Virus record (IMG/VR): IMGVR_UViG_3300022555_000032
Location: 1 to 64,000 of that record
DNA: 64,000 nucleotides
From: a virus
Taxonomy: Duplodnaviria > Caudoviricetes
Direction: 5' to 3' (one strand)
Below, piece after piece: positions 25,412 to 46,781 of the stretch; position 1 is the stretch's first letter; each line of letters begins with the position of its first letter. The notes under the pieces are model-generated. The model was not told the DNA's origin. It worked only from the letters and a program-made list of their open reading frames with translations, and searched no databases. Both the position numbers and the translations under genes were made by a program.

Positions 25412-26446
25412 TTAAATAGTTTTTATTGTGTTACGATCTTTACAGTCATAAATTGGACAAGTGATGCAATTCTCTGGCATAGGAGTTGTCTTCCATCCAT
25501 TCTTATGATGATGTTCAATCTCACTAACCACCGTTCTTATTGTTTGAAACATCTCTCTTTTTCTTACAGAGGCTATGTTTGCAGATTTAGGATCAGGATC
25601 ATTGATATCGGTGTTTACCGGAACTAGTTTCCATCCTCTATCATTCCTTTTATAATCTATCACTAAATAGAAGAAAGGAAGCGATAGGGCGAAGGAATAG
25701 AGATAAGCCTGTATGTTATCCATCTTTTCAGGTTCACCCCAACAGAACTCACCAAAACAGCCATTACGATCAATTGTAAGCTTAAGATCAATAACAGCTA
25801 GGTCATGTTGAAATGATTTATAATGGATTTGGCTTATAAGGTCGGTCTCCAGCTCAATAAAGATATCAAATGGAAAGTCTTCCCTGGTAGTAGGATCAGC
25901 ATTAAGAGTAGTAAACTGTCTCCATATTACTTGTGGATCGATAATAAGATCTAACTGAGGAACAATATTGTTCTTAAAGTTAAATACCTGTTCGTCAATC
26001 CTTAAATGATCTGCAGACTTCTTATTACCTCTTAACAATGGAAGAGTTAACACATCACCATTCTTATCTATACCGCCATTTAATGCATGCGCTTCAAAAT
26101 AGTTGCCTTTCTGCATGCTCATAGTCGGTTTAGAGCGTATCTCGCAAGTGATGTATGTCTTATACAGCTTTAAAGCACAGAAGTCTCTTCGGTCTCCTTT
26201 AAAGGTCATAGCCTTGATCATACTCTGATGAATGAACACTTCTTTAATAGTTCTATTAGATTTTAAGACTAGCCTTGAATCAAAGTACTTTCTTTTTTCT
26301 TCTGTTATATTTAAGGAAGAATCTGCAGATACGGATGGATGATCAATAACATCTTCATGAAGAATCTTTTTGTCCTCCACAGGAGTATAAGTACTCCCAT
26401 GGATAGACATAAGATTATTGTAATATTGATCTAGGTCAACGAACAT
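25412..26446 (-). CDS. Cas4-like PD-(D/E)xK nuclease with 1+3 Cys pattern
   Basis: DFCALKLY near N-terminus; ETDL...VIDLKLT; QAYLY; C-terminal CITCPIYDC. Confidence 0.65.
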   Translation of the reverse strand: MFVDLDQYYNNLMSIHGSTYTPVEDKKILHEDVIDHPSVSADSSLNITEEKRKYFDSRLVLKSNRTIKEVFIHQSMIKAMTFKGDRRDFCALKLYKTYITCEIRSKPTMSMQKGNYFEAHALNGGIDKNGDVLTLPLLRGNKKSADHLRIDEQVFNFKNNIVPQLDLIIDPQVIWRQFTTLNADPTTREDFPFDIFIELETDLISQIHYKSFQHDLAVIDLKLTIDRNGCFGEFCWGEPEKMDNIQAYLYSFALSLPFFYLVIDYKRNDRGWKLVPVNTDINDPDPKSANIASVRKREMFQTIRTVVSEIEHHHKNGWKTTPMPENCITCPIYDCKDRNTIKTI

Positions 26447-26447
26447 T

Positions 26448-27194
26448 TTAAGATGGTTTTTGGTTTACATAGACTAAGAAGATCTCTGCCTGTTCAATCA
26501 GCTTGGTTATAAGTCTCTTCTTTACAACCAATCTTCCGGTAGTAGGATCCGTTTCCTCGTCATTACCTTTCAAATGAGTATAGCTTGGTAAATCCATACA
26601 GGAGATAGCATTATCCAGGCAAGAGAATCTTATCTCTACTGAATCCCTGTTCAGGTCTGTACCATCTTTGGTAACATAAGCCTGAATAGAGTTAGCCATG
26701 ATCTGTAAAGCTTTATCATTAACAGCCATAAGATGAAAAGGATCTCTCTCGTCTGCAGGCATAGCACTAAACTCTTCCGTCCACTCATTAAGTTTCCAAA
26801 GCATTCTTAAGACTCTTCTTAAGGATTCTGAATAAAACTTAGGTCCGGTAACAGAAGGATCGTTCCAGGTACTCTTAGATGATCCAGATGGGCCTGCAGG
26901 AGTTAATGGATTACCATTAGCATCAATCAGTTCAACCTTTGTTAAAACGATCCTGGTACGATCATCCTTAGTCTTTTCTTCTGACTGAGCCTTGATACGA
27001 TCACCTGGCTTGAGTGGCTGAGGACCATTCTCTTCAAGTTTACGGACATACCTTAAGACATCATCTTCTTCAAATAGGACCTTCCATCGGTAGAACTTCT
27101 TACCCATTTCATAGTCATAGTAATGCTTATCGTCTTTAGCATCCTTTGTAATACTCTTCACTATACCAGTGAAGTTTTCTTTTTCTTTTGCCAT
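26448..27194 (-). CDS. Possible ssDNA-binding/recombination protein (OB-fold-like N-terminus)
   Basis: Beta-rich N-terminus, G/P/S linker, position between nuclease and SMC-like ATPase. Confidence 0.35.
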   Translation of the reverse strand: MAKEKENFTGIVKSITKDAKDDKHYYDYEMGKKFYRWKVLFEEDDVLRYVRKLEENGPQPLKPGDRIKAQSEEKTKDDRTRIVLTKVELIDANGNPLTPAGPSGSSKSTWNDPSVTGPKFYSESLRRVLRMLWKLNEWTEEFSAMPADERDPFHLMAVNDKALQIMANSIQAYVTKDGTDLNRDSVEIRFSCLDNAISCMDLPSYTHLKGNDEETDPTTGRLVVKKRLITKLIEQAEIFLVYVNQKPS

Positions 27195-27421
27195 TAGTGT
27201 GATTCTTGAATTTGTGGTTCGAAATATGATAATTCTTTTATGTTGTTATCATGGGCATGACGAGACTCTGATACTTTATCAGTCCAAAACATAGCAAGTT
27301 TTTTTTCTATTTGATCAAGTATGATTTTTTGATCTTTACCTAAGAAATTATTAATCAGTTCATTATAGAATAAATTACAGAGTTCTTCTTTCTTTTTGTT
27401 TAATTCATCAACTTCATTCAT
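27194..27421 (-). CDS. Hypothetical protein
   Basis: 75 aa coupled ORF. Confidence 0.5.
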   Translation of the reverse strand: MNEVDELNKKKEELCNLFYNELINNFLGKDQKIILDQIEKKLAMFWTDKVSESRHAHDNNIKELSYFEPQIQESH

Positions 27422-27425
27422 GGTT

Positions 27426-28778
27426 TTATTCTCCTACAATTATTTTACAATCAACATTTTCATCATCAGTTACAAGTTGTCCAAAGACCATACGATTACT
27501 TTTCTTAGAGATTTCCATGATCTTCTTACGGCTTTCCTTATCGTATAAGGACCAGTCTCCAATATTGACAAAATCACTTGTTGTAATGGAGCATAAGAGG
27601 TCCATGATAGCTAATCTTGCTTCCGTCTCAGAAACAGAACTTTCATCCAGCGCAAACCCGTTAAGAGTAATATTCTCTTCATCAAAGGATAGGCCAGCTG
27701 GTAACGAAGAGTTTTTAATAATCTCCATCTTTTCCTGTTTAGCCTTTTCAATTTGACTATTAAGATCTTCAAGAGATTTATTAACCTGTTCAAGTTCCTG
27801 TAAAGCCAGATTTCGTTGATCAAGCCTTCCTTGATATATTCTTGCACTAGAGATCTTTTTGTCTCCTGTCTCGATACGGGTAGCCAGGACATTAGGATCA
27901 TCTTCCAAAAGCTTTTCAAAACCTTTGATATCTTCATTGATAGCATTTTTAGTATTACCAAAGAACTCAAGCATCTGAGCAATATCTGGAAGATCAGCAT
28001 CGAATCCTACTGCATCTGAGAACTCAGATATCTTTCTTATGATTTCATCTGCAGCACCGATCCTTGCCTTTAATTCCTTAATAGAAGCTTCATATGTTGC
28101 TCTTTCGGTCTGTTTCTTCCTGAGATCAGCTAACTGTTTTTCCATGGTGGGAATAAGGGCAATCTCTTTCTTTTCCTCTTCGGTAACAACAGTATTCCTT
28201 AAGACAGAATTCTTTTCTTCAATAGTCTTATTGATAGTTGCTCTTCTGAAATAGAGATTACCTTCAGTCTCTTTATTCTTCTTATCGGAAACAGAACGGT
28301 CAAGATCAGCTATTTTAACCCTCTGATCGACCGTAAGACATGCATAAAGCACATCTTTAACGAACTTACGCCTTCCTTCAGCATATTTAAGCATCTCGTA
28401 GACTTCGGCAACGGTAAGCGCTGAATAGGATCCCAACAGTTCCCTGATTCGCTTTGGATCAGATATAATTTTGGTATTCCCAGATTTATCAAGATAGCTT
28501 GCTCTAAAAATACTTTGTGTTTCAGTAATATCCCACTCAACTGTGATAGGGTTTCCATCTCTATCAAGTCCTTTTCTAATGACCTTACCTGACTCTTTTC
28601 CTCTTTGAATGGGATCAGTGATAGTATTATCAACAAGCGCAATTGATTCAAGGCACTGGATGATAGTTGATTTTCCTGACCCGTTCTTTCCAATGAAGGC
28701 AAACATCTGACCTCCACTAAAGTCCATAAAGGTTTTTTCGTGAAGTTTAATATTGATTAATTCGATACTTCTTTCCAT
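27426..28778 (-). CDS. SMC/Rad50/RecN-like coiled-coil ATPase
   Basis: Walker A GKNGSGKST, long coiled coil, degenerate ABC signature SVSETEA and C-terminal Walker B region. Confidence 0.75.
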   Translation of the reverse strand: MERSIELINIKLHEKTFMDFSGGQMFAFIGKNGSGKSTIIQCLESIALVDNTITDPIQRGKESGKVIRKGLDRDGNPITVEWDITETQSIFRASYLDKSGNTKIISDPKRIRELLGSYSALTVAEVYEMLKYAEGRRKFVKDVLYACLTVDQRVKIADLDRSVSDKKNKETEGNLYFRRATINKTIEEKNSVLRNTVVTEEEKKEIALIPTMEKQLADLRKKQTERATYEASIKELKARIGAADEIIRKISEFSDAVGFDADLPDIAQMLEFFGNTKNAINEDIKGFEKLLEDDPNVLATRIETGDKKISSARIYQGRLDQRNLALQELEQVNKSLEDLNSQIEKAKQEKMEIIKNSSLPAGLSFDEENITLNGFALDESSVSETEARLAIMDLLCSITTSDFVNIGDWSLYDKESRKKIMEISKKSNRMVFGQLVTDDENVDCKIIVGE

Positions 28779-28799
28779 AAGTGGTTATTTATAGGATTA

Positions 28800-29081
28800 T
28801 TAAAATAATGGTTCGTCTTCATTAATTGGTGAGGCTGGAATGTCTGCATCTTTCACGATCTTGTTTCCTAATGCAACTCCAAGGTTTAATGTCTTGGCTG
28901 ATCCGGCCTGTGAACTAGAGATAAGAGTTTCTTTATTAATCCCTATTCCTGGCGGTGGTGGTATTGGTACTTCTTTCTTTACTCCCTTCTTTAAGTCCAT
29001 GTAACGCTGGACTAACTCAAGATTGTTTTGCGTTAAGACCTTTATAAGATCTTCTGATAATTGTTCAAATGAATCTGACAT
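28800..29081 (-). CDS. Hypothetical protein
   Basis: 93 aa. Confidence 0.5.
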   Translation of the reverse strand: MSDSFEQLSEDLIKVLTQNNLELVQRYMDLKKGVKKEVPIPPPPGIGINKETLISSSQAGSAKTLNLGVALGNKIVKDADIPASPINEDEPLF

Positions 29082-29093
29082 TGTTATTAATAT

Positions 29094-30653
29094 TTAAAAT
29101 GATGGTTCTTCGTCTGGTTCTGATAATGGTCCTTCATTGGGATCCGGTTCAATTATATCTGCTTGATCAAATGTTACTTTTTGACCTTTTGTTCCCTGTT
29201 GAGGATCATAATAGTCAATCTCTTTGAAGATATTATAGTCTAAAGAACATAGGAAATGAATGACTCCTTCCCCAACATCAATGTTATCATCTTCTCTTGA
29301 TGCGCCAACATCGACAATGAATATCTTTTTAAGATTCTCTTTCCTATCTCCTTTATAGTCCGATAGAAGGTCTTTACGTTTGCCAGGAGAGTTGATAAGC
29401 AATACTTGATTAGGAACCCTTCTGAACGCTTCAGTACCCTTTATATCGGTTAATCTGGGCCTATAACCATTGGCAATGTTCTCTTTATTCTGTTGAGCAT
29501 CGTTAAAGTGATGAACAACCAAGATCAAAGCATTGGTCTCTTGCCTAATATTGGAAATCTGACTCATTACATAATCATACATTCCATTAAGATCATGCTG
29601 ATATCTCTCCCGATCTCCTAACTGAAGAATATTATCAATGACTAGTATCTTGAACTTCTCTGGTCTCTTATCACAGAATAGCTTAAAATGAAGTCTGATC
29701 TTCTCAATAGTAAGACTCTTTTCAATGAAGTTGATATCAAATCCTTGCAATGTAGTTACATGCTTATTGATGATAGGAAGAACATCTGCAGAGAAAGTAT
29801 TCTTTTTGATATCCTTTCCTTTGATAAACACTTTTGAAGAAAGATAATGAGTCCAGATATCCAGAGCTGCATCCTCAAGAGTTACCCAGTCAACGGCAAT
29901 ATCCTTATAGTTTTCTAACAGATACATTATAAGCATAGTTAGGAACTTGGTCTTGCCATCTTTTGCAGCACCAGCGAGAAGAATAATCTTATTAGATCCT
30001 ATTACTACCTTCTCATTGAATTCTTTCCAAGGGGTCTGATAGAATAGCATTGGAACACCAGTAACTTGCTTCTTATTGATCATATTGAATACCTGCTGAT
30101 GAACAGTAGTATTATCTATCGCAAATCTTTCACGATCTCGTTCATCAATGGCATTAAAGGAGTGCTGAATAGATTCAATAAGGTCAAAGACATCTGTAGT
30201 ATCCTGGTAAGCATCTTTGATCGCTGTAGAGCCAATTCTGATGATCTCCCTGAGCATGAACTTCTGTTGAAGTATCTTGTATTGATACTCTATATGATCC
30301 GGCCTTGTAGCCTTCATTAGAAGCTGAGAGACATAATACCTCCCCCCTGCTTGCTCAAGAGTACCATTAAGCCTTAACTGTTCACACACGATAAGAAGAT
30401 CGATTGGTTTATTAGCTGTATAAAGATCAATAATAGCCTGTGCTATTAACTGATGTTCTGTTTTATAGAATACTTCCATCTTGAAGATCCTAAAAATAGC
30501 AAAGTTGCATTTACCATCAATTATTATACCTAAGACATTCTCTTCAATTGCAGTATCTTGTGGAGGTATTTTTCCGAACTCTACAAATATCTCATTAAAA
30601 TCATTTTTAGATTTCCGTTTAAAACGTACTGGCTTTTTCTCTTCATTCTCCAT
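29094..30653 (-). CDS. dnaB: DnaB-like replicative helicase (divergent)
   Basis: IPPQD...EENVLG and FYKTEHQLI N-terminal domain; GAAKDGKT Walker A; LVIDNIL Walker B. Confidence 0.8.
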   Translation of the reverse strand: MENEEKKPVRFKRKSKNDFNEIFVEFGKIPPQDTAIEENVLGIIIDGKCNFAIFRIFKMEVFYKTEHQLIAQAIIDLYTANKPIDLLIVCEQLRLNGTLEQAGGRYYVSQLLMKATRPDHIEYQYKILQQKFMLREIIRIGSTAIKDAYQDTTDVFDLIESIQHSFNAIDERDRERFAIDNTTVHQQVFNMINKKQVTGVPMLFYQTPWKEFNEKVVIGSNKIILLAGAAKDGKTKFLTMLIMYLLENYKDIAVDWVTLEDAALDIWTHYLSSKVFIKGKDIKKNTFSADVLPIINKHVTTLQGFDINFIEKSLTIEKIRLHFKLFCDKRPEKFKILVIDNILQLGDRERYQHDLNGMYDYVMSQISNIRQETNALILVVHHFNDAQQNKENIANGYRPRLTDIKGTEAFRRVPNQVLLINSPGKRKDLLSDYKGDRKENLKKIFIVDVGASREDDNIDVGEGVIHFLCSLDYNIFKEIDYYDPQQGTKGQKVTFDQADIIEPDPNEGPLSEPDEEPSF

Positions 30654-31071: not shown

Positions 31072-31122
31072 AAATAGTGTTTGGAAGTGTAAATATAGTT
31101 ATATCCCTACATTTAAGAAGGA

Positions 31123-31896: not shown

Positions 31897-32066
31897 CCTC
31901 CATCGATATTAAAGTTAGATTCTACATATTGTTCTTTTGTAGGTAATGGACAATCATCCGGAATAGAATTAAGATCAATTCTTCTGTTTAATAGGAAGCA
32001 ATCACCTAATTCCTGATCACAATTTCCACAATCATGGCAACATGTAATTTCAAGTATCTTTATCAT
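31893..32066 (-). CDS. Small Cys-rich protein (57 aa, not in ORF track)
   Basis: MIKILEITCCHDCGNCDQELGDCFLLNRRIDLNSIPDDCPLP...; ATGA overlaps on both sides. Confidence 0.65.
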   Translation of the reverse strand: MIKILEITCCHDCGNCDQELGDCFLLNRRIDLNSIPDDCPLPTKEQYVESNFNIDGG

Positions 32067-32755
32067 AATGCTCCGTTATCAGCAAAAGAATAGTATTCAT
32101 CACCGCCTACAATTATATGATCTAATACTGCACATTCAAGTAATACTCCACAATCTTTAACTCTCTTAGTTATGGTATGGTCAGCATCACTAGCCTGGAT
32201 TGATTTTGAAGGATGATTATGTCCTAATATCATTGAAGAAGCATGATTAGAGAGCGCCAGTTGAAAGATCTTCTTTGGATCAACTACCGTACCGGATACA
32301 CCACCTTCGCTTATCTTAACCGTTCTAATGACCTTATTTGCTCTATTCATAAGTATGCACCAGAACTCTTCATATTGAAGATCTGATAGTATTGGATGGA
32401 AGATATCAAAAGCATCTCTTGACTTGGTTATCTTACCCATTTCTAAAGCTTGGTTAAGAGATCTTCTCTTACCTAATTCAAAAGCAGATAGTAATGTAGT
32501 AGCTTTTTGAGTTGTTAATCCAAGGAATTTAAGATCACCAATACTCATTTTAGCTATCCTATTAAAATCATTATTAGCTTCCTTTAGAATTGACTTGGAT
32601 AACTCAAGGAGATTGTTATTACATGATCCACCACCTATAATGATACATAGTAACTCAGCATCGCTTAAGGCATTTTTACCTTTAACAAGCATCTTATAGA
32701 CTGGCTGATCTTCTTTCACCCAGTCTTTCATTGGAACTTGATCAGTGGAGATCAT
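32063..32755 (-). CDS. radC: RadC/JAB-domain protein
   Basis: LSDAELL; YEEFW; GGVSGTVVDPKKIF; HNHPS...S.AD...T...LDHII; start moved to ATG at 32755. Confidence 0.9.
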   Translation of the reverse strand: MISTDQVPMKDWVKEDQPVYKMLVKGKNALSDAELLCIIIGGGSCNNNLLELSKSILKEANNDFNRIAKMSIGDLKFLGLTTQKATTLLSAFELGKRRSLNQALEMGKITKSRDAFDIFHPILSDLQYEEFWCILMNRANKVIRTVKISEGGVSGTVVDPKKIFQLALSNHASSMILGHNHPSKSIQASDADHTITKRVKDCGVLLECAVLDHIIVGGDEYYSFADNGAL

Positions 32756-32987
32756 CTTCGATAATGACTTTAGTACAGATAATCTCTTTGTTACCCTTAA
32801 TATGTTTAAGGAACCATTTTCCCTTATGTTCTTCATTCATAAGGATTTCAGCTTCATTAATAGTGACAGGAGTATAATAGTATAATCCTCCTTTAATGAA
32901 TTCAACAGCTAATGTTTGAGTAGGTTCATCATAGCCTAACTTGCTTATTAACTGTGAGTATACTGGTATTAAATCAATCTTTACCAT
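32742..32987 (-). CDS. KTSC-domain protein
   Basis: SQLISKLGYDEPTQTLAVEFIKGGLYYY.PV...GKWFLKHIK; start moved to 32987. Confidence 0.85.
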   Translation of the reverse strand: MVKIDLIPVYSQLISKLGYDEPTQTLAVEFIKGGLYYYTPVTINEAEILMNEEHKGKWFLKHIKGNKEIICTKVIIEDDLH

Positions 32988-33788: not shown

Positions 33789-34688
33789 CTATTCCTCTGT
33801 TGGAAGGAGATCGTCTGTCGTAGGTTCCTTATCTTGCTTATTAAGGTATGTTTCCAAGTCATAGTCATCTGATGTATGGAAGATTTCATCAACAAGGTTT
33901 GAAAGATAGTTCTGATTAACCTCAGTAATCTTACCTGAAGCTAAATCAGCCTGAATACGATCAATCATTGCATTGAAGTAATGAATATCAACACCTATGA
34001 GTTGATCATACATGATTTTAGGATTCTTAAGATCAAGAGCATTAAGCTGAAAAGCCATCTTAAAGATATCGCCAGCGCTTATTGTCCATCCTCTGGTCAA
34101 GAACTTCCTTAATCTAAAGAATGATGCTAAAGGATATAAGGAACCTACATAGCGTAATTCTTTAGCAAGGATAGCTTCCATTGAATCGGGATTAAGTCTC
34201 AGTTTACCATCTTTCGATAACCAGTAGGACTTAACATGAACAAAGTCATAGTTCTTATGGATTTCTTCTGCAGGTCCATAGAACCGGATGATAAGCTGAA
34301 CCTGATTAGTTAAAGAGATAGCATTATCTGTTATTACAGCTGGATAGAACTTCTTTCCTTTGTAACAAGGTCTCTTTATACCATCTGATTTAATCTGAAA
34401 ACGGATTCTTCCATCTGGATCCTCGACAATCTTTGTATTATTCATCCAGGTCTCATTCTCCTTGAGTAGTAATGAACGATAATAATTACATACCGCTAAG
34501 ACTGTTTCTTTATTGGTAAAATAGATATCAAAGTCATTAACCTCTTCGTTAAGGACTAGTGATACTATTGCCCCACCAGTAATGATAGAATTGTCTTTTA
34601 CTAATTGCCTTACCTTTTCATCTGTTATTGATTTAAGGAATAAGGCAAACTGACCTCTGAGGATCTTTTCACACGTTATAGCTTTCAT
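33789..34688 (-). CDS. Pol-beta superfamily nucleotidyltransferase
   Basis: ITGGAIVS ... NDFDIYF (GG + DxD), FDF-like YDFVH, RLRKFLTRGW. Confidence 0.7.
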   Translation of the reverse strand: MKAITCEKILRGQFALFLKSITDEKVRQLVKDNSIITGGAIVSLVLNEEVNDFDIYFTNKETVLAVCNYYRSLLLKENETWMNNTKIVEDPDGRIRFQIKSDGIKRPCYKGKKFYPAVITDNAISLTNQVQLIIRFYGPAEEIHKNYDFVHVKSYWLSKDGKLRLNPDSMEAILAKELRYVGSLYPLASFFRLRKFLTRGWTISAGDIFKMAFQLNALDLKNPKIMYDQLIGVDIHYFNAMIDRIQADLASGKITEVNQNYLSNLVDEIFHTSDDYDLETYLNKQDKEPTTDDLLPTEE

Positions 34689-35971
34689 ATTGTTTTTGCT
34701 AATTGTTTAATTACTTTCTTATTGCTATTGACTAGTCTTACAATCTCTTTATGATATGGGGAATCATCATTATTTAATCCTCTTGCCTGAACAACTTTCA
34801 TTTCCGATAAAGAGAATTCTATTGTTTCTAATCTCTGGTTATCTTTCCTTGCCGATAGTATTAATGAGTCTTCATCAGCATAGTATTCATTGCTAAATAC
34901 GCAATGATTAAGGCTATCTCCTTCTATTACAAACTCATTAACATCTTTTAGAACTACTACTGAGAAATTATCATTAGAGAACTGAAGAGGGAAGAACTTA
35001 CTTTTAGATTGTTGATAAAGGATATTGGCTTCTGCTATCTTAGCTTTTAGTTTAGCAATACCTTCTTTTCTTCTTCTTTCATTACTCTTTCTGATATATC
35101 TCTGGTGTTCTAATTTGAGATCAACAGGACAGATGAACTTAGGGTTGTAGATGTCCTTTTCAAACGATATGAGCATGTCTATCTGATCAAGCCACGTAGC
35201 TACATCTTTAACAAGATAGTTGTTCCTGATGCATATTCTGATTTGAGGCCAGTACTCTTTGATCTTTTGATTATACCTATGATATTCACTAAGAAGATTA
35301 AACTGACCAGTCTTGATCAATGTCTCTGTTTTTGATTCGGATAGGATTATAGAGAATAGATAAGCCGGATGAAGCTGATGAAAACTATACTTAAAACCAT
35401 TTCGTCTTAAAGTCTTAAGATAGCGTTTGCCTGGACAAATATCCTTTCCATAGGTATAATATTTGTCTTTAATGTTCCGAATCTCCATGTCAGATCCCCA
35501 AATCCATTTGTCTCCATATCCAAAAGCATTATCCTTTACGGCTCTTACTACACTTAATCCATCTTCTCTTATCCAGTGCTGAATGACCTCCATGGAACTA
35601 TATACAGCCTTCTTACCAGCATAACAGCGCTGATGAATCCAAACAATCCTTACTATCTGATAGTTCTTATGAGTAGACATATAGAAATAATACTCTTTAT
35701 CGAACTTATGCCTTATACGTCCTTCTAAGACCTTTAGGTCGCATCCACACTTAGGACAAGTAAATCCACCTACTTTAACTAGAAGTGATCCCTTAACGTC
35801 TGAATTAGGCCATTTATGACCACATTCTAAGCAAATAACTTCATGCTTTGTCTTATAAGCATATTTCTTAAAGAGATTCTTTCTGGCCCAGGGAAGAGAT
35901 GATTTGATAATTGGAGAAAGAGACTTAGATAGATGATCGACTTCAATCTGAATCTTTGTCTTTGGTTTCAT
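34685..35971 (-). CDS. pcfJ: PcfJ-like protein
   Basis: CLECG/CPKCG N-terminus; EGDSLNHCVF..EYY...SLILSARK...LETIE.SL....VVQARG.NN. Confidence 0.85.
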   Translation of the reverse strand: MKPKTKIQIEVDHLSKSLSPIIKSSLPWARKNLFKKYAYKTKHEVICLECGHKWPNSDVKGSLLVKVGGFTCPKCGCDLKVLEGRIRHKFDKEYYFYMSTHKNYQIVRIVWIHQRCYAGKKAVYSSMEVIQHWIREDGLSVVRAVKDNAFGYGDKWIWGSDMEIRNIKDKYYTYGKDICPGKRYLKTLRRNGFKYSFHQLHPAYLFSIILSESKTETLIKTGQFNLLSEYHRYNQKIKEYWPQIRICIRNNYLVKDVATWLDQIDMLISFEKDIYNPKFICPVDLKLEHQRYIRKSNERRRKEGIAKLKAKIAEANILYQQSKSKFFPLQFSNDNFSVVVLKDVNEFVIEGDSLNHCVFSNEYYADEDSLILSARKDNQRLETIEFSLSEMKVVQARGLNNDDSPYHKEIVRLVNSNKKVIKQLAKTI

Positions 35972-36185
35972 TAGAAATTTTCTTTACTTCTTCAATGAAG
36001 GCTCTACAATGACGACCATCTTTAGTCTTTCCGTATAAGAAATAGTTAAACTGTGTTCCTACTTTTCTTACACATGAAGGAAAATCCCGTATGATGAATC
36101 TTTCACCTGTCTTTACAAGATTTTCTCCTTTATAATCTTTAGTTAATTCTAATGTTTCACCTATGCAAAATCCTGGATCTTTCAT
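35943..36185 (-). CDS. Hypothetical protein inserted between pcfK and pcfJ
   Basis: 80 aa. Confidence 0.5.
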   Translation of the reverse strand: MKDPGFCIGETLELTKDYKGENLVKTGERFIIRDFPSCVRKVGTQFNYFLYGKTKDGRHCRAFIEEVKKISNETKDKDSD

Positions 36186-36604
36186 TAGAACAAACTTAAT
36201 TCTTCTGTTTTAGCAACTTCTTTCTTAGCTGGAATAATAGTAGGTGCCTGTTTCTTTCGCATAGAGGCCATAGCATCATCCTGGACCTTTTGGATAGCTT
36301 CTTTACGTGCTTTGTCTTTCTCTTCTTGAGTAAGCTCAACGGTATGATTAACCACTACTGTAGCATCAATAGCCTTTCCTATATCGATGATCTCTTCGTC
36401 ATAGTAGTGTACTGCCATTGAATAGACTTCTGCATCTGTAAAGCCATTAATACCGCTTTTCTGAACAGTATTTAAGATATAAGTACAACAGTCTTCAATG
36501 TTCTTCTTATCGTTCTTAAACTTGACTGCAAAGAGTTCATCCTGTTCTGCTTTTACTTCAAGATGTTTCTGTATTGCTGCTTTGAAAAAATCAGATCTTT
36601 TCAT
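36185..36604 (-). CDS. acrIIA9: PcfK-like / AcrIIA9-family Cas9 inhibitor
   Basis: FK..I..L...A..DELFA....K...DC...ILN.V..SG..G.TD.EV.S.A.HYYDE...VVVNH.VELT.EEK..ARKEA...ELSLF collinear with AcrIIA9 as recalled. Confidence 0.75.
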   Translation of the reverse strand: MKRSDFFKAAIQKHLEVKAEQDELFAVKFKNDKKNIEDCCTYILNTVQKSGINGFTDAEVYSMAVHYYDEEIIDIGKAIDATVVVNHTVELTQEEKDKARKEAIQKVQDDAMASMRKKQAPTIIPAKKEVAKTEELSLF

Positions 36605-40294: not shown

Positions 40295-40298
40295 AGGA

Positions 40299-41121: not shown

Positions 41122-41158
41122 AAAAGAAAGGCCCGGACATTAAATCCCGGGCCTTTTA
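41122..41158 (-). terminator. Intrinsic (possibly bidirectional) terminator
   Basis: AAAGGCCCGG/CCGGGCCTTT 10-bp stem with U-runs on both strands. Confidence 0.8.
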
Positions 41159-41192
41159 AATAACAGATAATATAAATCAAGTGGCTAAATTA

Positions 41193-41609: not shown

Positions 41610-41791
41610 TCCTATTGGTTAGTTATTAATCATCATTTCTCATGTAGATAGGTTAAACTACTGATGATTAGAATCCTATTTTAGTCATAAAAGCAATATA
41701 GATATTGATATTAAAAAGAAAGTACAGTGCTATTAACAAGCACGTTCCACTAACACATATTCCTAAATAATGCCATGGATAATCCTTAATA

Positions 41792-42286
41792 TCAGTTAGG
41801 ATTGTTTTGATCGTTGATCGGGATAATAATCGAATGATCGCAGACGTATGGACATGGTCCGGATCCTTGACTTGGTGTTGCATAGTATAATGTATTAATA
41901 TTGTTTCCATTACGATCTGTTGAACATACTGTAGAAATGTTAAGAGTACCATCTTTGGCTATAGTTATCCTACAGCCTACGGTTGATTCGCTTTGAAAAA
42001 GAATAGACATTGCTTCGTATTGCCAACGATTAACTAAGAATGATTTAAATACACCATTAATAGGTGTTGGCTTAGAATTGAGATATTGTTCCTGGAATTC
42101 TTTCGCAAGACCATACGAGATAAGCTGCATAAATGGATTGTTTTGAGGCTGTATAACAGCTTCTTTTAGGTTAGCCGAAGGATATACTGGTTTAGCTTCG
42201 TCCTTCTTCGTACAACTCATAATAGAGAATACAAGCATGTACATCAAAACGCAAAACGCAAAGATTCGTACCTGATGTTTTTTCAT
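41792..42286 (-). CDS. Lipoprotein
   Basis: Basic + hydrophobic N-terminus, lipobox IMSC followed by TKKDE; C-terminal GPCPYVC. Confidence 0.7.
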   Translation of the reverse strand: MKKHQVRIFAFCVLMYMLVFSIMSCTKKDEAKPVYPSANLKEAVIQPQNNPFMQLISYGLAKEFQEQYLNSKPTPINGVFKSFLVNRWQYEAMSILFQSESTVGCRITIAKDGTLNISTVCSTDRNGNNINTLYYATPSQGSGPCPYVCDHSIIIPINDQNNPN

Positions 42287-42317
42287 TGTAACTGTTTTAG
42301 TTAATGGTTAATGATTT

Positions 42318-42411
42318 GAAGAAAAGAAAAGAAAGGATGGATAGTAATTGAGGAAATATAGCTACACATTTGTCAACTGATGAGGCACCCATACCTTTCT
42401 TTCTATGAATG
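42318..42411 (-). ncRNA. Candidate small RNA/leader attenuator
   Basis: Multi-segment hairpin 42328-42402 with minus-strand G-U pairs, U-rich tail, directly after a TATATTTG -7 box. Confidence 0.55.
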
Positions 42412-42417
42412 GAACAA

Positions 42418-42425
42418 CAAATATA
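42418..42425 (-). promoter_or_regulatory. Bacteroidota sigma-ABfr type -7 element (TAnnTTTG)
   Basis: TATATTTG on minus strand in intergenic DNA; no clear -33 at canonical spacing. Confidence 0.5.
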
Positions 42426-42555
42426 TAAAATAAATTATGAAAAATCAGATAAGCAAAAGAAATGAATATGCTAAACGGTATTGATTAAATTTTCCCCTCT
42501 CTTTTCAACACCTATGCTTACACCAGCTTCCTTTCATTTCTTCGCTCAAGACTAA

Positions 42556-42670
42556 GACATATGCTAACTGAGGTAACTAGGAGTTATCACTACCCCATGG
42601 ATCCAGATTTCGATCCCCATTGTTGCCTGTTTCACTTGACTCACCCCTTCCCGAGAGGATAACATATGCC
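42556..42670 (-). ncRNA. Candidate multibranch structured RNA
   Basis: Closing pairs GGCATATG/CATATGTC and GTTATC/GATAAC, inner GGATC/GATCC; GC-rich in non-coding DNA. Confidence 0.35.
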
Positions 42671-42851
42671 TTAAATATCATCTTCTCTTGAATCTATTTC
42701 TTTCTCTTTGTTCATAGTCAGCACGAACTTCTGCCTCCCTACTTTTATCAGTAATGAAGATGATTGTCTTACCACCATTCAACACTATCGGATATTTGTC
42801 TTTTACAGATCCACAAATTACTCAATAGAATCAAACCATCCGGCAATATAT

Positions 42852-42897
42852 ATTGTGGAATCTATGTCAAAGATACAATCTGAAAGCAATTCACAAC
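42852..42897 (-). CRISPR. Solitary type II-C (Bacteroidota) CRISPR repeat unit, no cas genes
   Basis: GTTGTGAATTGCTTTCAGATTGTATCTTTGACATAGATTCCACAAT, 46 nt, GTTGTG...CACAAT termini; 29 of first 32 aligned columns match the B. fragilis II-C repeat as recalled. Confidence 0.8.
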
Positions 42898-43035
42898 TAA
42901 TCCCTTGTTGTTGATCAAGAATATCAACCTTAGCTCTCCTTTTACGTTCCATTTCTTTAAACTCTTTTCTAGTTGTAATTCTAGAAGGAGTAACCGCATA
43001 CCTACGTTTCATAAAGATTTAATTAGATTGTTAAA

Positions 43036-43067
43036 CAAATGTATGAATTATGATAGAATGTTAGCAA
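43036..43067 (-). promoter_or_regulatory. Host-type promoter upstream of the CRISPR repeat
   Basis: TTG-N21-TACATTTG on minus strand. Confidence 0.55.
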
Positions 43068-43143
43068 TTATTACCAGTGCGCCCATTGCTAAGGCACCAA
43101 GAATGATCTTGATAAGTATTACTGGAACTTCGACTAGTTTCAT
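43048..43143 (-). CDS. 31-aa single-pass membrane peptide (not in ORF track)
   Basis: MKLVEVPVILIKIILGALAMGALVIIANILS; starts 5 nt after the lipoprotein stop. Confidence 0.55.
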   Translation of the reverse strand: MKLVEVPVILIKIILGALAMGALVIIANILS

Positions 43144-43147
43144 ATAG

Positions 43148-43534
43148 CTAATTTTTATAGACTATTGTTAGTTTCAATTGAATGATTGTACCTGGAGATG
43201 CATTAAGTCTTCCTATCAGACTATTATCATCATTCATTAGATACTTAATATCTAAATTTTGATTAAAATATCCTTTAGATAGGACTATTGAATCAAGATC
43301 ATTTGATGATTTAGTCTTTAAAAGTAGTAGAACCGGACTCTTATCTGTATATACTGTACCATTCATACCTAAAACACTAATAGGATTACTCATTAATGTT
43401 TTAAAGGTAGGAATATTAAAATCACCAACAGGTATTGAGATCTGAATGGTTTGAAAGGGAAGGATATCTGATTGTTCCTGTTTAGAACAAGAGATCAATG
43501 CCAAAATGATAATAAGAAACAAAGTTGTTTTCAT
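43148..43534 (-). CDS. Lipoprotein
   Basis: MKTTLFLIIILALISC-SKQEQ lipobox. Confidence 0.75.
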   Translation of the reverse strand: MKTTLFLIIILALISCSKQEQSDILPFQTIQISIPVGDFNIPTFKTLMSNPISVLGMNGTVYTDKSPVLLLLKTKSSNDLDSIVLSKGYFNQNLDIKYLMNDDNSLIGRLNASPGTIIQLKLTIVYKN

Positions 43535-43577
43535 CGTCTTGATATTAGGTTAATAAATGAATGAATAAGGCTAAAAG

Positions 43578-43653
43578 AAGCCCCTGGATACACGATCGGC
43601 GCAAGATGACCCTATGACATATCATCAACAGCAACTACGTTCACCAGAGGCTT
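43578..43653 (-). ncRNA. Long-stem intergenic RNA element
   Basis: AAGCCTCTGG/CCAGGGGCTT 10-bp closing stem (G-U on minus only), inner GATGAT/GTCATC, followed by CTTTT. Confidence 0.5.
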
Positions 43654-43906
43654 AATGTTATTCTTCAAAGAGGGAGAATCGGACTCCCTTTCAGATCTTT
43701 CTTCTTCGATTAATCTGTGTACTCCCACTGTACGACCTTGCCAGCAATAAGTAAAGATCTCTTGCAGGACTTATATCCTCTTATAAGCCGAATGATATTG
43801 ATCAAGTGATACAATACTATAGATTGTACTCTTTGATGCGAACCAGCCACTCATAAGCTATTAAATAGACAAGAGATCTCTTAGGTGATACTTACTTAAG
43901 TAATAA

Positions 43907-44194
43907 TCACTCAAGCAATTCTTTTTGATTAGAAAACAGATAAACTTTTTTATCTGAAGAAATTTCATGAGAAACACAGGCACGTATACCCTGATATTTA
44001 AGTGAATTTAGTCTATTGGGTTCATTAGTTTCAGTAGGACATACTCCGTATACTTGAAATATACCAGCATCAACCTGAGCAATAAATTGTTTCTGTCCGT
44101 CTGTATCTATTAATCCAATACATGCGTGATCATCAATCTTATCCAATGGTATGACTGGTTCCTGTTGATACTTAATAATTCTTTGCATAATCAA
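43907..44194 (-). CDS. Hypothetical protein
   Basis: 95 aa, with AAGGAG-containing leader. Confidence 0.6.
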   Translation of the reverse strand: MIMQRIIKYQQEPVIPLDKIDDHACIGLIDTDGQKQFIAQVDAGIFQVYGVCPTETNEPNRLNSLKYQGIRACVSHEISSDKKVYLFSNQKELLE

Positions 44195-44347
44195 TTCTCC
44201 TTTAAGTTAGTTAAACATTAATACTCTATAACTCTACATTCCGGCCCCAACGATCGCATGTACGAACACTTGAACCAGAACTGATGAACAACTCAACTCC
44301 ACCTGCCAACCTCCCTATATAGCTCGCTACGCATCCACATCACCATT

Positions 44348-44381
44348 CCCGACCATTATACCCTATTACCCCTTTACCCCC
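44348..44381 (-). other. G-quadruplex-capable tract
   Basis: Minus strand GGGGG-TAAA-GGGG-TAATA-GGG-TATAATGGTC-GGG. Confidence 0.45.
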
Positions 44382-44592
44382 ATAATAAACACTATTAAGG
44401 TTATCACAAGAGACAAAGGATAGATGAAAGCCTTATCACTACTGATGTTTCAGCTACTCTTATAGTCTATTATGATAATATCTTAAAAGGTATAAATGAT
44501 CATCATGAGCTCTCTCTATTAATAGATGAATATTAATTGATTAGCTATGTTATTTAGAAAGTACAATTTTACACATGCCTTTTGGGTTGTCT

Positions 44593-44603
44593 CCACTCGG
44601 GAG
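44593..44603. repeat. 11-nt direct repeat CCACTCGGGAG, copy 1
   Basis: Exact copy at 45684-45694; both have AATTTTAC to their left on the + strand. Confidence 0.7.
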
Positions 44604-44794
44604 ATAATTAAACTAAAGGTCTGATAATCAATCCTAGCATGTCCATTCTAAATAAGGAATTGACTTGTGACTATACCATGTGTATCCCTCCATGCATAAA
44701 TGATCATTATGAATGACTCTTGAGCACCCTATGAATTGATCCAATAATAATAAGTGTGCGATTTTAGGCACGCCATATATATATAGGAACAATT

Positions 44795-44874
44795 AAAAAA
44801 AATAAACCAAGCACACGTCAGTTCGTGATTAAGATCTCTTGTACGGGAATAGCGCGATGAGATCACTTGGTTTA
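44795..44874 (-). ncRNA. Long-stem RNA/terminator-like element
   Basis: TAAACCAAGTG/TGCTTGGTTTA closing stem, inner GATCTC/GAGATC, then U8. Confidence 0.55.
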
Positions 44875-45212
44875 ACTCAGGCAATAACTGGTCGCTAACC
44901 CTTCTCTTTGGCCTTATATGATCAAGCGTGTACGATCAATGCCCCCATGATAACATATAATGAATCAGGTCTTATCGTTTGTTCAAAGATACCTGATGAT
45001 CATCCATCTTTTCTATTTGCTATCAAAATCTCAACACATCAAAATAGTGCTGAACATATTGATAACAGTGATTAAGAACAACAAAAATAGTAAAGTTAAC
45101 TCATTCTCCTTGCGATATAAATAGTTCTCCCTATGGATGGACGTAATTATAAGCACCAGGAAGAGATGATCGCCATACAAGTATTAACCTCGTCCTATAG
45201 ATTGACTAGAAG

Positions 45213-45243
45213 AAAAAAAAGTCCTTCCCCGAAGGGAAGGATC
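45213..45243 (-). terminator. Strong intrinsic terminator with UUCG loop
   Basis: TCCTTCCC-TTCG-GGGAAGGA followed by U8. Confidence 0.9.
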
Positions 45244-45248
45244 TTTTC

Positions 45249-45638
45249 TTAACGGTGGCTTACAACCATCCTGAACGGGAACTGAGGATTACTTGCATCT
45301 GCTTCGTAACCAACCTCAACGCCTGCCTTAAAGCGAACAAAGCCTTCTGCTGAACCTTTCTCAAACAATGGTTCATTGTTGTACTTTGCCTGCCAAACGC
45401 CCATAATGGTGCTTGCATAGGTCTTGACGTTCTGCCCTGTTAGCCTCATCTTAAGCACGAAGTCAGGCGTATCAACGCCTTTCTTCTTACGCTCGGTGAT
45501 TGAAACAATGACAGGTGAAACAGGAGATATCTCGCTCTTAGGGAGCCATCCTCCAATCTCACTTGGTTTAACATTGTTCAATAAGGACAAAGGAATTTCA
45601 ATTCCTTGTTCCGTCGATGTTGTTGCTAAATCGATCAT
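45249..45638 (-). CDS. Monocistronic first gene of leftward block (129 aa; possible nucleic-acid-binding protein)
   Basis: A-rich leader CAAAAAGTAAAATG, own terminator, higher GC codon usage. Confidence 0.65.
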   Translation of the reverse strand: MIDLATTSTEQGIEIPLSLLNNVKPSEIGGWLPKSEISPVSPVIVSITERKKKGVDTPDFVLKMRLTGQNVKTYASTIMGVWQAKYNNEPLFEKGSAEGFVRFKAGVEVGYEADASNPQFPFRMVVSHR

Positions 45639-45683
45639 TTTACTTTTTGTTAGGATTGTTAATACTAATTTAATTTTACCCAA

Positions 45684-45694
45684 CCACTCGGGAG
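45684..45694. repeat. 11-nt direct repeat CCACTCGGGAG, copy 2
   Basis: See 44593-44603; 45 nt upstream of the 45638 start. Confidence 0.7.
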
Positions 45695-45745
45695 GTGTAG
45701 GGGGGTGCCTGGGGAGAGGGGTATATCAAATAAAAAAGGGGTGGG
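45690..45745 (+). other. G-rich tract at strand switch (G4-capable; possible terminus/origin signal)
   Basis: Six G3-G6 runs in 56 nt in an AT-rich genome. Confidence 0.55.
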
Positions 45746-45841
45746 TGTGTTTAAAACTCACTATTGGTATGTTGTTGATAAATTTAATAGAAATGATAAG
45801 GGGGTATGTTTGAGTATATGTAAATTTGTAGAAAAAAGAAT

Positions 45842-46351
45842 ATGAAAAGAGAGTCAGAAGTTTTAATGAAGTATGATGTTACCAAGGATGGTATTGTCTC
45901 AAATAGAGAGACTGGTAGGATTTTGAAGCATCAGGTATCGTATAAGGGGTATCTAAGGGTTGCAGTTTTTCTTGAAGGTAAGCAGCACAATGTACGGATA
46001 CATAGATTAGTTGCGACTAAGTATGTTCCCAATCCATTTGAGTATTCTCAGGTGAATCATAAAGATTCTAATAAACAGAACAATCATTATTCTAACCTTG
46101 AGTGGTGTACTAATAAGATGAATCACGATCATGCAGTTGATAATGGAACAATAATTCATCTCGGTAGTCATGCACCTATGGCAGTATTGAATGAAGAAGA
46201 GGTATTGGACATCCGGATTAGATTAAGGAATGGTGAATCACACAGTAGTCTTTACAATGGGTTTAAGGATAGGATCAGCTGGTGGACCTTCAGGGATATG
46301 TTAAGAGGAAAGGCATGGAAGCATGTTGTTCTTGAAGATTGCAAACAATGA
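45842..46351 (+). mobile_element. HNH homing endonuclease (HNH_3-type with C-terminal DNA-binding helix)
   Basis: KGYLRV...IHRLVA...PNP....VNHKDSNKQNNHYSNLEWCT...N. Confidence 0.9.
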
Positions 46352-46402
46352 GATGTTAAAAAAAGATTGATAGGAATGATATGTTGTATTGTACGGGATA
46401 CT

Positions 46403-46410
46403 TATATTTG
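46403..46410 (+). promoter_or_regulatory. Host-type -7 element
   Basis: TATATTTG 30 nt before the Tad2-like start; TTG at 46384-46386. Confidence 0.6.
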
Positions 46411-46439
46411 CTCTTAGTATTCATTTAAAGATATGTTAT

Positions 46440-46781
46440 ATGTTATTTAGAGATGTAAGTGGTCAGTTAAGAGATGGGTTGATGGTAAGAAGGACATCGT
46501 GGCCGGAGGGTACGTTTATCTTCAGACAGGTGCCAGCTATCATCAGCAAGACGATCGTTCCAGGGATGCAGTCTTTACCCGCTGTAGTCAAAGAAGAGTT
46601 CCTAAGACGTTTTAAGGACGATTCATACCAGGTTAGTGAGATCTATTACAACGATCAGATAGCGATCGTCAACGCTTCCAATTTGATCCAGGGATGGGGC
46701 GCATTGCCTGTAGACTTGCTAGCAGAAGACTGGACCGTCTATTATGTCATTACTAACATCATTCCAGTACCGGAGGGATAG
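46440..46781 (+). CDS. tad2: DUF2829 / Thoeris anti-defence Tad2-like protein (start revised)
   Basis: G.MVRR.SW....IFRQVPA.I...IVP.MQSLP...GW....DLLAEDW. Confidence 0.75.
   Translation: MLFRDVSGQLRDGLMVRRTSWPEGTFIFRQVPAIISKTIVPGMQSLPAVVKEEFLRRFKDDSYQVSEIYYNDQIAIVNASNLIQGWGALPVDLLAEDWTVYYVITNIIPVPEG

Follow-up and report, generated by a model that had tools for sequence, protein, structure and literature searches.

Sequence comparison traces a 106-nt piece of an 85,427-bp crAss-like phage genome to the type II-C CRISPR locus of its host, from which 60 nt of leader and the first repeat were taken, most likely by recombination. Use of this fragment as a crRNA-like decoy is the reading that we find most likely. 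Together with the view of its surroundings as a mosaic accessory region that follows no programme, we hold it tentatively, at a probability of roughly 0.42. An earlier note had assigned the repeat and a series of anti-defence-like genes to one coordinated attack on the host's Cas9 and nucleotide-signal immunity; these genes are unlinked accessory genes.

On the minus strand the repeat begins with GTTGTGAATTGC and ends with CCACAAT, and it reads in the same direction as the leftward genes (Table 1). It is solitary, with no second copy at up to 3 mismatches in the window (the whole 64,000-nt stretch that was analysed; shuffled sequences lead one to expect 0) and none of its 32-nt core at up to 9 mismatches in the whole genome. 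The core has matches in more than 120 CRISPR arrays of Bacteroidota, which have a period of 76-77 nt, and the array repeats of Bacteroidota metagenome contigs L152, L156 and L158 are identical to the phage repeat at 45/46 positions, which bears out its earlier assignment to type II-C. The sole mismatch, a phage T for a host C, falls on the final base, where repeat and leader meet. All 22 tracrRNA-pairing positions are the same as in the host repeat, and the predicted repeat:tracrRNA duplex comprises 22 bp with one bulge. Two further solitary copies of this repeat family were found, one in a 90.6-kb virus that is only distantly related (G006) and one in a 4.8-kb viral fragment (L003). Each matches a real host variant and neither has a leader; the L003 copy directly abuts the ATG of the next gene, and that of G006 is followed by some 190 nt and a terminator-like hairpin, with no gene.

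Leader and repeat together match L158:6704-6809 at 102/106 positions (E 2e-44). The matching host DNA links cas2 to the array of a locus ordered tracrRNA-cas9-cas1-cas2-array, which includes a tracrRNA candidate and a leader and in which neither csn2 nor cas4 was found. This flank is invariant, being identical in the 6 other host contigs that span it; it differs in the related genome G001, and the phage flank fits the host lineage and not G001. Host strains with identical cas2 and flank have the distal spacers in common but diverge in those near cas2, which marks that flank as the spacer-acquisition end and, thus, the phage piece as leader plus first repeat. On the spacer side the homology breaks off precisely where the repeat ends; on the other side it tails off within A-rich leader sequence. 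Missing from the phage copy is the distal part of the leader, with a second inverted copy of the repeat end and the terminator that in the host halts read-out beyond the last repeat. Sample ERZ18624653 contains both the phage and the host locus, and the fragment is identical across independent assemblies (L164, L165, L178 and SRR5754711). As the earlier note had expected, the repeat pins down by sequence match the host lineage, one with a type II-C locus and presumably an uncultured Bacteroidota bacterium. Searches of the phage for cas9 and cas1 found neither, leaving it without cas genes, and no sequence resembling the host tracrRNA was found in it.

Table 1. Positions of the fragment, its promoter-like boxes and the genes discussed
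Feature	Positions	Strand	Basis or remark
'ART-like' gene (putative)	21557..22093	-	
PD-(D/E)XK nuclease, Cas4-like cysteine motif	25412..26446	-	motifs and Atlas clusters
AAA ATPase	27426-28778		neighbour of PD-(D/E)XK nuclease
DnaB	29094-30653		neighbour of PD-(D/E)XK nuclease
RadC-like JAB-domain protein	32063..32836	-	PF04002, 133 bits, plus UPF0758_N
Pol-beta-type nucleotidyltransferase	33789..34688	-	GG...DFD motif; phrog_4400
PcfJ-like protein, constant partner of PcfK	34685..35971	-	PF14284, 115 bits
PcfK-domain protein (AcrIIA9 family)	36185..36604	-	PF14058, 152 bits
Lipoprotein gene	41792-42286		downstream of repeat, beyond 530-nt non-coding stretch
TATATTTG box	42418-42425		motif scan; separate, upstream of lipoprotein gene
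Host CRISPR leader copy (cas2-proximal array flank), 60 nt	42792..42851	-	flank alone 57/60
ORF, 64 codons	42818..43012	-	runs through repeat into leader-derived DNA, stop there
Type II-C CRISPR repeat, solitary, 46 nt	42852..42897	-	equals first, leader-proximal repeat of host array
TATCTTTG promoter-like box within repeat	42868..42875	-	motif scan; TTG 18 nt upstream
TACATTTG, -7-like box	43036..43043	-	motif scan; TTG 21 nt upstream
Tad2/AcrIIA7-family (DUF2829) protein	46389..46781	+	PF11195, 38 bits; domain 46440-46739

Two promoter-like boxes bear on how the fragment might be transcribed. The TATCTTTG box within the repeat is of the Bacteroidota -7/-33 type and directed towards the leader; the minus strand of the genome has 24 TAnnTTTG sites, this one included, and promoter activity of the box is putative. 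The TACATTTG box, which lies some 140 nt upstream of the repeat, is a candidate promoter. The 64-codon ORF is probably not a genuine gene in its present form: its final 31 codons are CRISPR-derived, it has no match in Pfam, and its single tblastn match elsewhere is the L003 repeat itself. No terminator follows the repeat-leader unit on the minus strand, so that a discrete small RNA is not evident.

As a decoy, the fragment would be transcribed within the early leftward transcript from the Bacteroidota-type promoter upstream, and the phage repeat would pair with the host tracrRNA just like the host repeat. After processing, Cas9 would be loaded with a guide consisting of the phage's own adjacent sequence. 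The phage sequence that matches this guide would adjoin the repeat and not a PAM, so that Cas9 and tracrRNA would be tied up in harmless complexes, as with RNA anti-CRISPRs (Racrs). Consistent with this are the solitary state of a repeat that keeps every tracrRNA-pairing position, the extension of identity into the flank of a host locus equipped with a tracrRNA candidate, cas9, cas1 and cas2, the joint occurrence of phage and locus in one sample, the constancy of the fragment in a phage without cas9 and cas1, and the sense orientation behind a TAnnTTTG box. The solitary copies in G006 and L003 provide context, as does the established action of solitary repeats as RNA anti-CRISPRs against types I and V (PMC10651486). 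Several observations weigh on the other side: the repeat alone would suffice, which leaves 60 nt of leader unexplained; no terminator closes the unit; no spacer collected from host-lineage or related arrays matches the phage; and the end of homology exactly at the repeat edge suits a recombination scar equally well.

The unit resembles Racrs and solitary repeat units (Faure et al. 2019; Camara-Wilpert et al. 2023, PMC10651486) in being one repeat in a cas-less virus, near-identical to the host repeat, on the sense strand of local genes and with a promoter-like motif no more than 250 bp upstream. Tested Racrs belong to types I-C, I-E, I-F and V-A and bind Cas6, Cas7 or Cas12a directly (PMC10651486), whereas the would-be target here is a II-C Cas9 that needs tracrRNA. 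The phage unit also differs in bearing 60 nt of host leader and overlapping a called ORF, and its decoy role is putative. Like rAcrIIA1 and viral sgRNAs (bioRxiv 10.64898/2026.06.03.729762; mentioned in bioRxiv 10.1101/2024.10.29.618823), it is a phage non-coding element derived from the host type II guide apparatus and lies between genes, in a stretch of some 500 bp. Those elements fuse crRNA-like and tracrRNA-like parts and mimic a whole II-A sgRNA, whereas the phage unit is a repeat only; against the decoy stands the fact that the RNA published as a Cas9 inhibitor copies the complete sgRNA, whereas the phage has no tracrRNA-like part.

A strong rival, if a somewhat unlikely one in our estimate, is that the fragment is a scar of recombination or escape that now serves no function. 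In that case the host would have gained a spacer from phage positions 42898-42927; recombination between spacer and protospacer, with an illegitimate join in the A-rich leader, would then have set the first repeat and leader beside the protospacer. With the repeat in place of the PAM side, the recombinant would have escaped Cas9, and the fragment would have been retained passively. Both homology boundaries fit such an event, as do the presence of a leader that a decoy does not need, the interruption of a small ORF, the 4/106 differences from an invariant host flank, which drift predicts, and the sense order of phage sequence, repeat and leader, which is that of spacer 1, repeat 1 and leader. 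Among 206 distinct spacers of the host lineage and 937 from related arrays, however, none matches the phage, whether at 42898-42927 or elsewhere, and these spacers thus give no sign of current targeting by the host system. Moreover, the fragment is fixed and identical in all phage assemblies examined, and the other two solitary viral copies lack a leader, so that a single mechanism fails to cover all three.

Since a leader and one repeat make up a minimal integration site, host Cas1-Cas2 could also insert new spacers into many phage copies. The fragment would then be an adaptation sink, or equip the phage with heritable guides that direct host Cas9 at competing phages, with the repeat-internal promoter expressing the acquired guides. 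This is distinctly unlikely, even though the fragment is the exact integration site, where leader meets repeat at the acquisition end, one host strain (L175) has a leader and just one repeat, and the repeat contains the promoter-like TTG-N18-TATCTTTG. No phage assembly examined has a repeat-spacer-repeat form at this site, the one repeat mismatch falls at the leader junction, where it could impair integration, and the distal leader is missing. The virus-borne mini-CRISPR arrays of archaeal viruses (Medvedeva et al. 2019, PMC6858448) likewise set a host-like leader beside a host-like repeat in a cas-less virus, a likeness that implies use of host adaptation and interference proteins. Those arrays are of type I and hold 1-2 spacers between repeats; the phage unit is a single bacterial II-C repeat with no spacer and with its leader downstream in the direction of crRNA transcription. 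The stand-alone repeats in the same study are leaderless, unlike the phage unit, and whether they take up spacers was left undecided there.

It is improbable that the repeat was kept as a captured Bacteroidota promoter driving the 530-nt non-coding stretch and the lipoprotein gene. The box inside the repeat, the loss of the host terminator and the position of the L003 repeat right at an ATG would suit this reading; on the other hand, the lipoprotein gene already has the separate TATATTTG box upstream of it, a promoter would not conserve the tracrRNA-pairing half or the leader, and the G006 repeat leads to no gene.

Most of the gene families named in the earlier note are indeed present. The AcrIIA9-like gene encodes the PcfK domain that AcrIIA9 carries (PMC6739104), and pcfJ lies directly downstream of pcfK in 9/11 other viral loci. 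The start of the nucleotidyltransferase overlaps the pcfJ stop; its 1362 homologues are all tagged PF26128, and in the other genomes compared the gene is not linked to pcfK or pcfJ. The RadC-like translation shows an HNHPS...D motif. The Cas4-like protein has no match among Pfam and PDB sequences; the Atlas clusters closest to it are viral PD-(D/E)XK nucleases (PF12705 or DUF3799; TM 0.62/0.81), and its translation contains ETD, IDLK and QAYLY motifs together with CxxCxxxxC at the C-terminus. The Tad2-like protein across the strand switch exceeds the PF11195 cut-off of 25 bits and matches solved SptTad2, HgmTad2 and AcrIIA7 by sequence (8wjd, E 3e-8; 8kbi, 9e-5; 9kzr, 2e-4). The putative ART-like gene lies outside the coordinates that the note gives. 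It matches no ART Pfam or PDB sequence; R122, S133 and E172xE174 are conserved among 44 homologues, and its confident model (pLDDT 90.7) gives Foldseek matches to ExoS and ART2.2 that are only weak, with E values no better than 0.09.

Presence of these families in one genome, a host with a II-C system and the frequent proximity of predicted Racrs to acr genes (PMC10651486) would favour a single co-selected programme of repeat, PcfK, nuclease and Tad2 against one host's Cas9 and signalling defences, but this is highly improbable because every comparison that could be made shows the elements assorting independently. PcfK is absent from L003 and from G006, the only nearly complete virus that carries a clean solitary repeat of this family (a positive control was included), and the repeat core occurs in 0/11 PcfK-bearing viral records. 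RadC, nucleotidyltransferase and Tad2 are all absent from G006, G015 and G011, Tad2 being present only in G017 among these four, and PcfK is accompanied only by PcfJ. The elements are dispersed over about 25 kb and 45 genes amid ordinary replication genes, with dozens of unrelated genes separating the repeat from pcfK (6.2 kb) and from the nuclease (16 kb). The nuclease belongs to the replication/recombination cluster, and the attack on adaptation ascribed to it is unsupported, as are the roles given to the nucleotidyltransferase and RadC.

The PcfK and DUF2829 proteins exceed curated Pfam cut-offs, and their likeness to AcrIIA9 and AcrIIA7/Tad2 is one of family and, for the DUF2829 protein, also of sequence. 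Both families are very large, with homologues in genomes of many CRISPR types (PMC6739104), which also argues against a programme. AcrIIA9 was selected against a II-A Cas9, whereas the phage host is II-C. For DUF2829 two readings have been published, a signal sponge or a tracrRNA binder, and AcrIIA7 failed to bind a II-C tracrRNA (PMC13133391).

The leftward block would be the early, accessory and replication region of the phage, probably a mosaic in which independently mobile accessory genes (pcfK-pcfJ, the PF26128 nucleotidyltransferase, radC and, beyond the strand switch, the Tad2/AcrIIA7-family gene) are interspersed with ordinary replication and recombination genes (DnaB, AAA ATPase and PD-(D/E)XK nuclease). 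Within it, the PcfK and DUF2829 proteins may add separate anti-defence activities, with nothing that ties them to the repeat.

The phage carries 106 nt of a host type II-C CRISPR locus, made up of a single 46-nt repeat and the first 60 nt of the adjoining leader. In a BLAST alignment to the non-array part of L158, a contig from an uncultured Bacteroidota lineage, this fragment is identical at 102 of 106 positions (E 2e-44), and the 60 nt that phage and host share beyond the repeat match at 57/60. The repeat itself is 45/46 identical to the units of the L152, L156 and L158 arrays (21 to 42 repeats; metagenome scan), with the last base as the sole difference. It is nearly identical to a genuine CRISPR repeat of known subtype, as the L158 array adjoins cas9-cas1-cas2. 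It is also solitary: neither a whole nor a partial further repeat lies close by, and the phage lacks cas genes (cas9 and cas1 were both searched for). No second copy occurs in the window at ≤3 mismatches, none being expected by chance, and the 32-nt repeat core has no further copy in the rest of the whole genome at ≤9 mismatches. A degenerate core pattern picked up over 120 sites in Bacteroidota genomes, which were almost always arrays with a 76- to 77-nt period. An uncultured Bacteroidetes genome (L015/G001) headed the consensus-repeat ranking at 43/46, with the 47-nt repeats from gut Bacteroides and Phocaeicola far lower. The exact 46-mer was not found in species genomes; at ≤3 mismatches, G001 was its sole holder within the one order searched.

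Features of the phage discussed in the text (positions in the window)
Feature	Position	Strand	Remark
Giant ORF	15-17216		5,733 codons
"ART-like" gene	21557-22093		outside 25412-46781
Sparsely coding stretch	42287-45248		3 kb
Leader copy plus repeat	42792-42897	minus	106 nt
Host-leader copy	42792-42851	minus	60 nt
Rejected "half repeat"	42809-42817		9 nt
Type II-C repeat	42852-42897	minus	46 nt, single copy

The 9-nt "half repeat" was rejected as a second, partial repeat, being part of the host leader. Reading the region as a repeat, a 34-nt spacer and a degenerate half repeat fails likewise: this stretch belongs to the host leader and does not vary among the host contigs covering it, and the "spacer" with the half repeat has no repeat-like register. 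A seemingly solitary match in another record, G007, was dropped because it lies 7 nt from a contig end, probably where a host array begins.

In the host locus, a tracrRNA candidate (an anti-repeat followed by a terminator, upstream of cas9 and divergent from it) is followed by cas9, cas1, cas2, a 113-nt flank and the array, whose crRNA sense strand points towards cas2. The L158, L168 and L169 loci, with the order cas9-cas1-cas2, neither csn2 nor cas4 and a tracrRNA candidate, are of type II-C. Contigs with exactly the same Cas2 have the same gene order and a Cas9 of 1,523 residues. The flank is invariant in L158 and in six of the eight contigs with an identical Cas2, the remaining two ending within it. 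Spacers beside cas2 vary among the host arrays while distal ones are common: L168 and L169 have the same distal spacers in the same order, and L152 equals L169 plus four additional proximal spacers. New spacers thus enter at the cas2 side, an array polarity that identifies the flank as the leader. The cut-down most distal repeat of several related arrays and a short junction motif kept beside the last repeat both fit a leader at the cas2 side. Since the flank of G001, though alike in architecture, differs in sequence over its first ~55 nt, the phage copy came specifically from the L158-type lineage. The claim in the earlier note that the repeat should identify the host was therefore borne out, the 106-nt match leading to an L158-type Bacteroidota lineage with a II-C Cas9 locus.

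The leaders of the Bacteroidota II-C arrays in L158 (6651-6763) and in contigs L029, L118, L053, L094, L008, L050, L035, L116 and L160 follow a common architecture and differ in sequence. The first repeat is succeeded by a short junction motif (NTAYMY-like), beyond which lie ~50 nt of variable sequence and an A-run. An inverted copy of the 3' end of the repeat, co-varying with the repeat from system to system, is next, and then a bidirectional terminator that also serves cas2. Among the most distal repeats in L053, L008, L090, L100 and L035, some have a ~30-nt insertion (GGC..GCCGAGCTCGCA..ACGCTCGG) between GCTTT and TTCAG, and others are reduced to their 3' half, with a promoter-like TATCTTTG. 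In one host strain (L175, ERZ27313079), cas2 and the leader are followed by just one repeat, beyond which the DNA is unrelated; its array has collapsed or never grew, and has the same form as that carried by the phage. In L158 (684-5340) and L168, the cas9 call gives 649 + 910 residues, or 910 alone, where L169 has 1,523; either some strains carry a frameshift or the assembly is in error.

The 85,427-bp virus record, the first 64 kb of which form the window, carries direct terminal repeats, has a GC content of 31 to 39% and encodes a large terminase and a portal protein. The closest named relatives of the terminase are from uncultured crAss-like phage cr118_1 and Bacteroides phage BS162P1, at ~33% identity across one third of the protein. 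A portal search of viral contigs returned no close relative, identity to the viral records G006, G015 and G016 being only 24 to 26%. The giant ORF at the start of the record is of a kind known from the giant virion proteins of crAss-like phages. The fragment lies in a region comprising a leftward gene block, from 25.4 kb to a strand switch near 45.7 kb, and the first rightward genes. Megablast of the leftward block against phage records gave no match, and the window has no tRNAs and no Rfam match at gathering thresholds. Coding is very sparse in the 3-kb stretch around the fragment, which has only a 64-codon ORF, 128-aa and 164-aa lipoprotein-like genes and a 95-aa gene. Of the 24 TAnnTTTG motifs on the minus strand of the genome, 5 lie here, a cluster suggestive of multiple early promoters and perhaps of non-coding RNAs.

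The fragment is a persistent feature of this phage. Independent assemblies from different projects carry it unchanged (contigs L164, L165, L178 and one from SRR5754711, which breaks off within the repeat), and L178 was assembled from the same sample as host contig L171 (ERZ18624653). In a further phage contig (L162/L179, ERZ18624489), the repeat and 31 nt of leader give way to another leader-like sequence and a hairpin resembling a terminator, up to the contig end; this is either an assembler join with a second host-leader variant or a phage variant. In a 1752-nt contig the genes are more closely spaced. Exact searches with the phage sequences on both sides of the fragment recovered no relative with an empty site.

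We tentatively favor a reading in which the fragment would act as a crRNA-like decoy of the RNA anti-CRISPR (Racr) kind, with a probability of about 0.42. The repeat is in sense orientation relative to the leftward genes, a TTG-N21-TACATTTG motif (a TAnnTTTG-type box, promoter-like by motif) lies ~140 nt upstream, and all tracrRNA-pairing positions are as in the host, features that a Racr-type decoy fits (PMC10651486). A second such motif lies within the repeat. Racr candidates are expected to be intergenic, with a promoter within 250 bp upstream; the phage unit has the promoter-like motif in that range, but the 64-codon ORF, probably spurious because its last 31 codons are CRISPR-derived, is open across it. 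Two points weigh against a decoy. It would not need the leader, and the RNAs so far described as inhibiting Cas9 all mimic an entire sgRNA, in each case of a II-A system. Such mimics (rAcrIIA1, vsgRNA) join a tracrRNA-like 3' part to a crRNA-like part, whereas the phage has no such 3' part: the host tracrRNA candidate (L158, ~560-650, minus) has no phage counterpart, the repeat itself being the sole match. The literature searched yielded no earlier bacteriophage in which a stand-alone repeat comes with a host leader, and no earlier II-C candidate consisting of the repeat only. A solitary repeat is also present in a 90.6-kb virus, a distant relative (L004; G006:C1:~71560-71800); it has the same sequence as the L053 host repeat and is followed by ~190 nt of non-coding DNA closing in a hairpin and T-run, with the look of a small-RNA gene.

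The leader, superfluous to a decoy, is rather what spacer-protospacer recombination with a host array would leave behind as a scar. Homology stops exactly at the spacer-side edge of the repeat, and the order of phage sequence, repeat and leader corresponds to spacer 1, repeat 1 and leader, an arrangement that such recombination would produce while stripping the PAM side of the targeted site. The spacer that this history predicts (phage 42898-42927) was not found among 937 spacers of related arrays and 206 distinct spacers of the matching lineage, none of which matched the phage at better than 22/30. We rank a scar second, as a strong rival to the decoy. The fragment also corresponds to the minimal integration site. 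Distinctly less probable is that a virulent crAss-like phage keeps a working copy of the host II-C site into which, in an infected cell, host Cas1-Cas2 would write spacers, in replicating phage DNA instead of the chromosome. Archaeal viruses do bear leader-carrying mini-arrays (PMC6858448), and the phage likewise has a host-like leader beside its repeat (57/60, with polarity set by spacer comparison). Mini-arrays, however, hold at least one spacer between two repeats, whereas the phage has a single repeat, with no expanded form, in all assemblies examined, and the sole changed repeat base sits at the leader junction. Were this improbable reading true, adaptive immunity would be blunted at the memory step or, alternatively, the phage would gain heritable guides and turn the host's own Cas9 on competing phages. 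Promoter capture comes last of these four readings.

The earlier note had set the repeat within a layered counter-defense program together with AcrIIA9-like, Cas4-like, ART-like, nucleotidyltransferase (NTase), RadC and Tad2-like genes. Comparison with other viral records did not support this grouping.

Distribution of the solitary repeat and the proposed companion genes among viral records
Record	Repeat	PcfK	Tad2	RadC	NTase
G000 (this phage)	yes	yes	yes	yes	yes
G006 (90.6-kb virus)	yes	no	no	no	no
G015	no	yes	no	no	no
G011	no	yes	no	no	no
G017	no	weak PcfK-like	yes	no	no

PcfK was absent, with a positive control run, from G006 (92% complete) and from L003, a 4.8-kb viral fragment, both of which carry a solitary repeat of the same family; conversely, the repeat core was found in 0 of 11 PcfK-bearing records. 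Within this small sample of distant relatives the elements assort independently, the outcome that the note itself had named as speaking against its proposal. The observation thus stands in part: the repeat is real and more interesting than described, and the program is not supported.

The individual proteins are of uneven standing. The phage PcfK domain is unequivocal (PF14058, 152 bits against a cut-off of 27), and PcfJ follows it directly here, as it does at 9 of the 11 other viral loci. AcrIIA9 carries a PcfK domain (PMC6739104); assignment to its family rests on this domain, and Cas9 inhibition by the phage protein is putative. The DUF2829 protein (PF11195, 38 bits against 25) belongs to the Tad2/AcrIIA7 family by domain and by similarity to characterized members in the PDB (8wjd SptTad2, E 3e-8; 8kbi, 9e-5; 9kzr AcrIIA7, 2e-4), with putative ligand binding. 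The function of DUF2829 is disputed between signaling nucleotides and tracrRNA, and AcrIIA7 did not bind a II-C tracrRNA (PMC13133391). RadC is clear from its profile match, and the NTase has a GG...DxD motif and more than 1,300 homologues, which carry the PF26128 tag. PDB sequence searches with the NTase, PcfK, the "Cas4-like" nuclease and its 248-aa neighbor gave no match.

The gene product called "Cas4-like" is a nuclease of the PD-(D/E)XK type that bears a cysteine motif. Its translation contains FCALK, ETD, IDLK, QAYLY and CITCPIYDC, i.e., the PD-(D/E)XK motifs and a four-cysteine cluster, and it matches viral PD-(D/E)XK clusters at fold level (TM 0.62/0.81). It has no Pfam match to the Cas4 profile (PF01930) even at E up to 5, and its nearest clusters carry PF12705 or DUF3799. 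Its neighbors are the 248-aa protein, an AAA ATPase and DnaB; the cas1-cas2 association typical of Cas4 is lacking, as the phage has no cas1. The "ART-like" protein, examined as a candidate R-S-E ADP-ribosyltransferase, has no Pfam match. R122 is invariant in its family alignment, with S133, E172 and E174 at least 90% conserved; its model is confident (pLDDT 90.7), and the best Foldseek matches, ExoS and ART2.2, are weak (E 0.09 to 0.5, TM ~0.33). The VIA list for this protein was taken up by its N-terminal helical domain. The protein, 178 aa long, is one of a family of over 110 unannotated phage and bacterial proteins, whose N-terminal half is helical and whose small C-terminal half is rich in beta structure.

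Anti-defense-like families listed in one genome are not evidence for a program. The 106-nt match ties a crAss-like phage without a cultured relative to one Bacteroidota lineage and its Cas9 locus, far more precisely than repeat similarity alone would. The fragment also offers a clean test of whether a bare repeat titrates tracrRNA and Cas9, whether spacers are taken up on a phage leader-repeat, or whether recombination leaves such scars.
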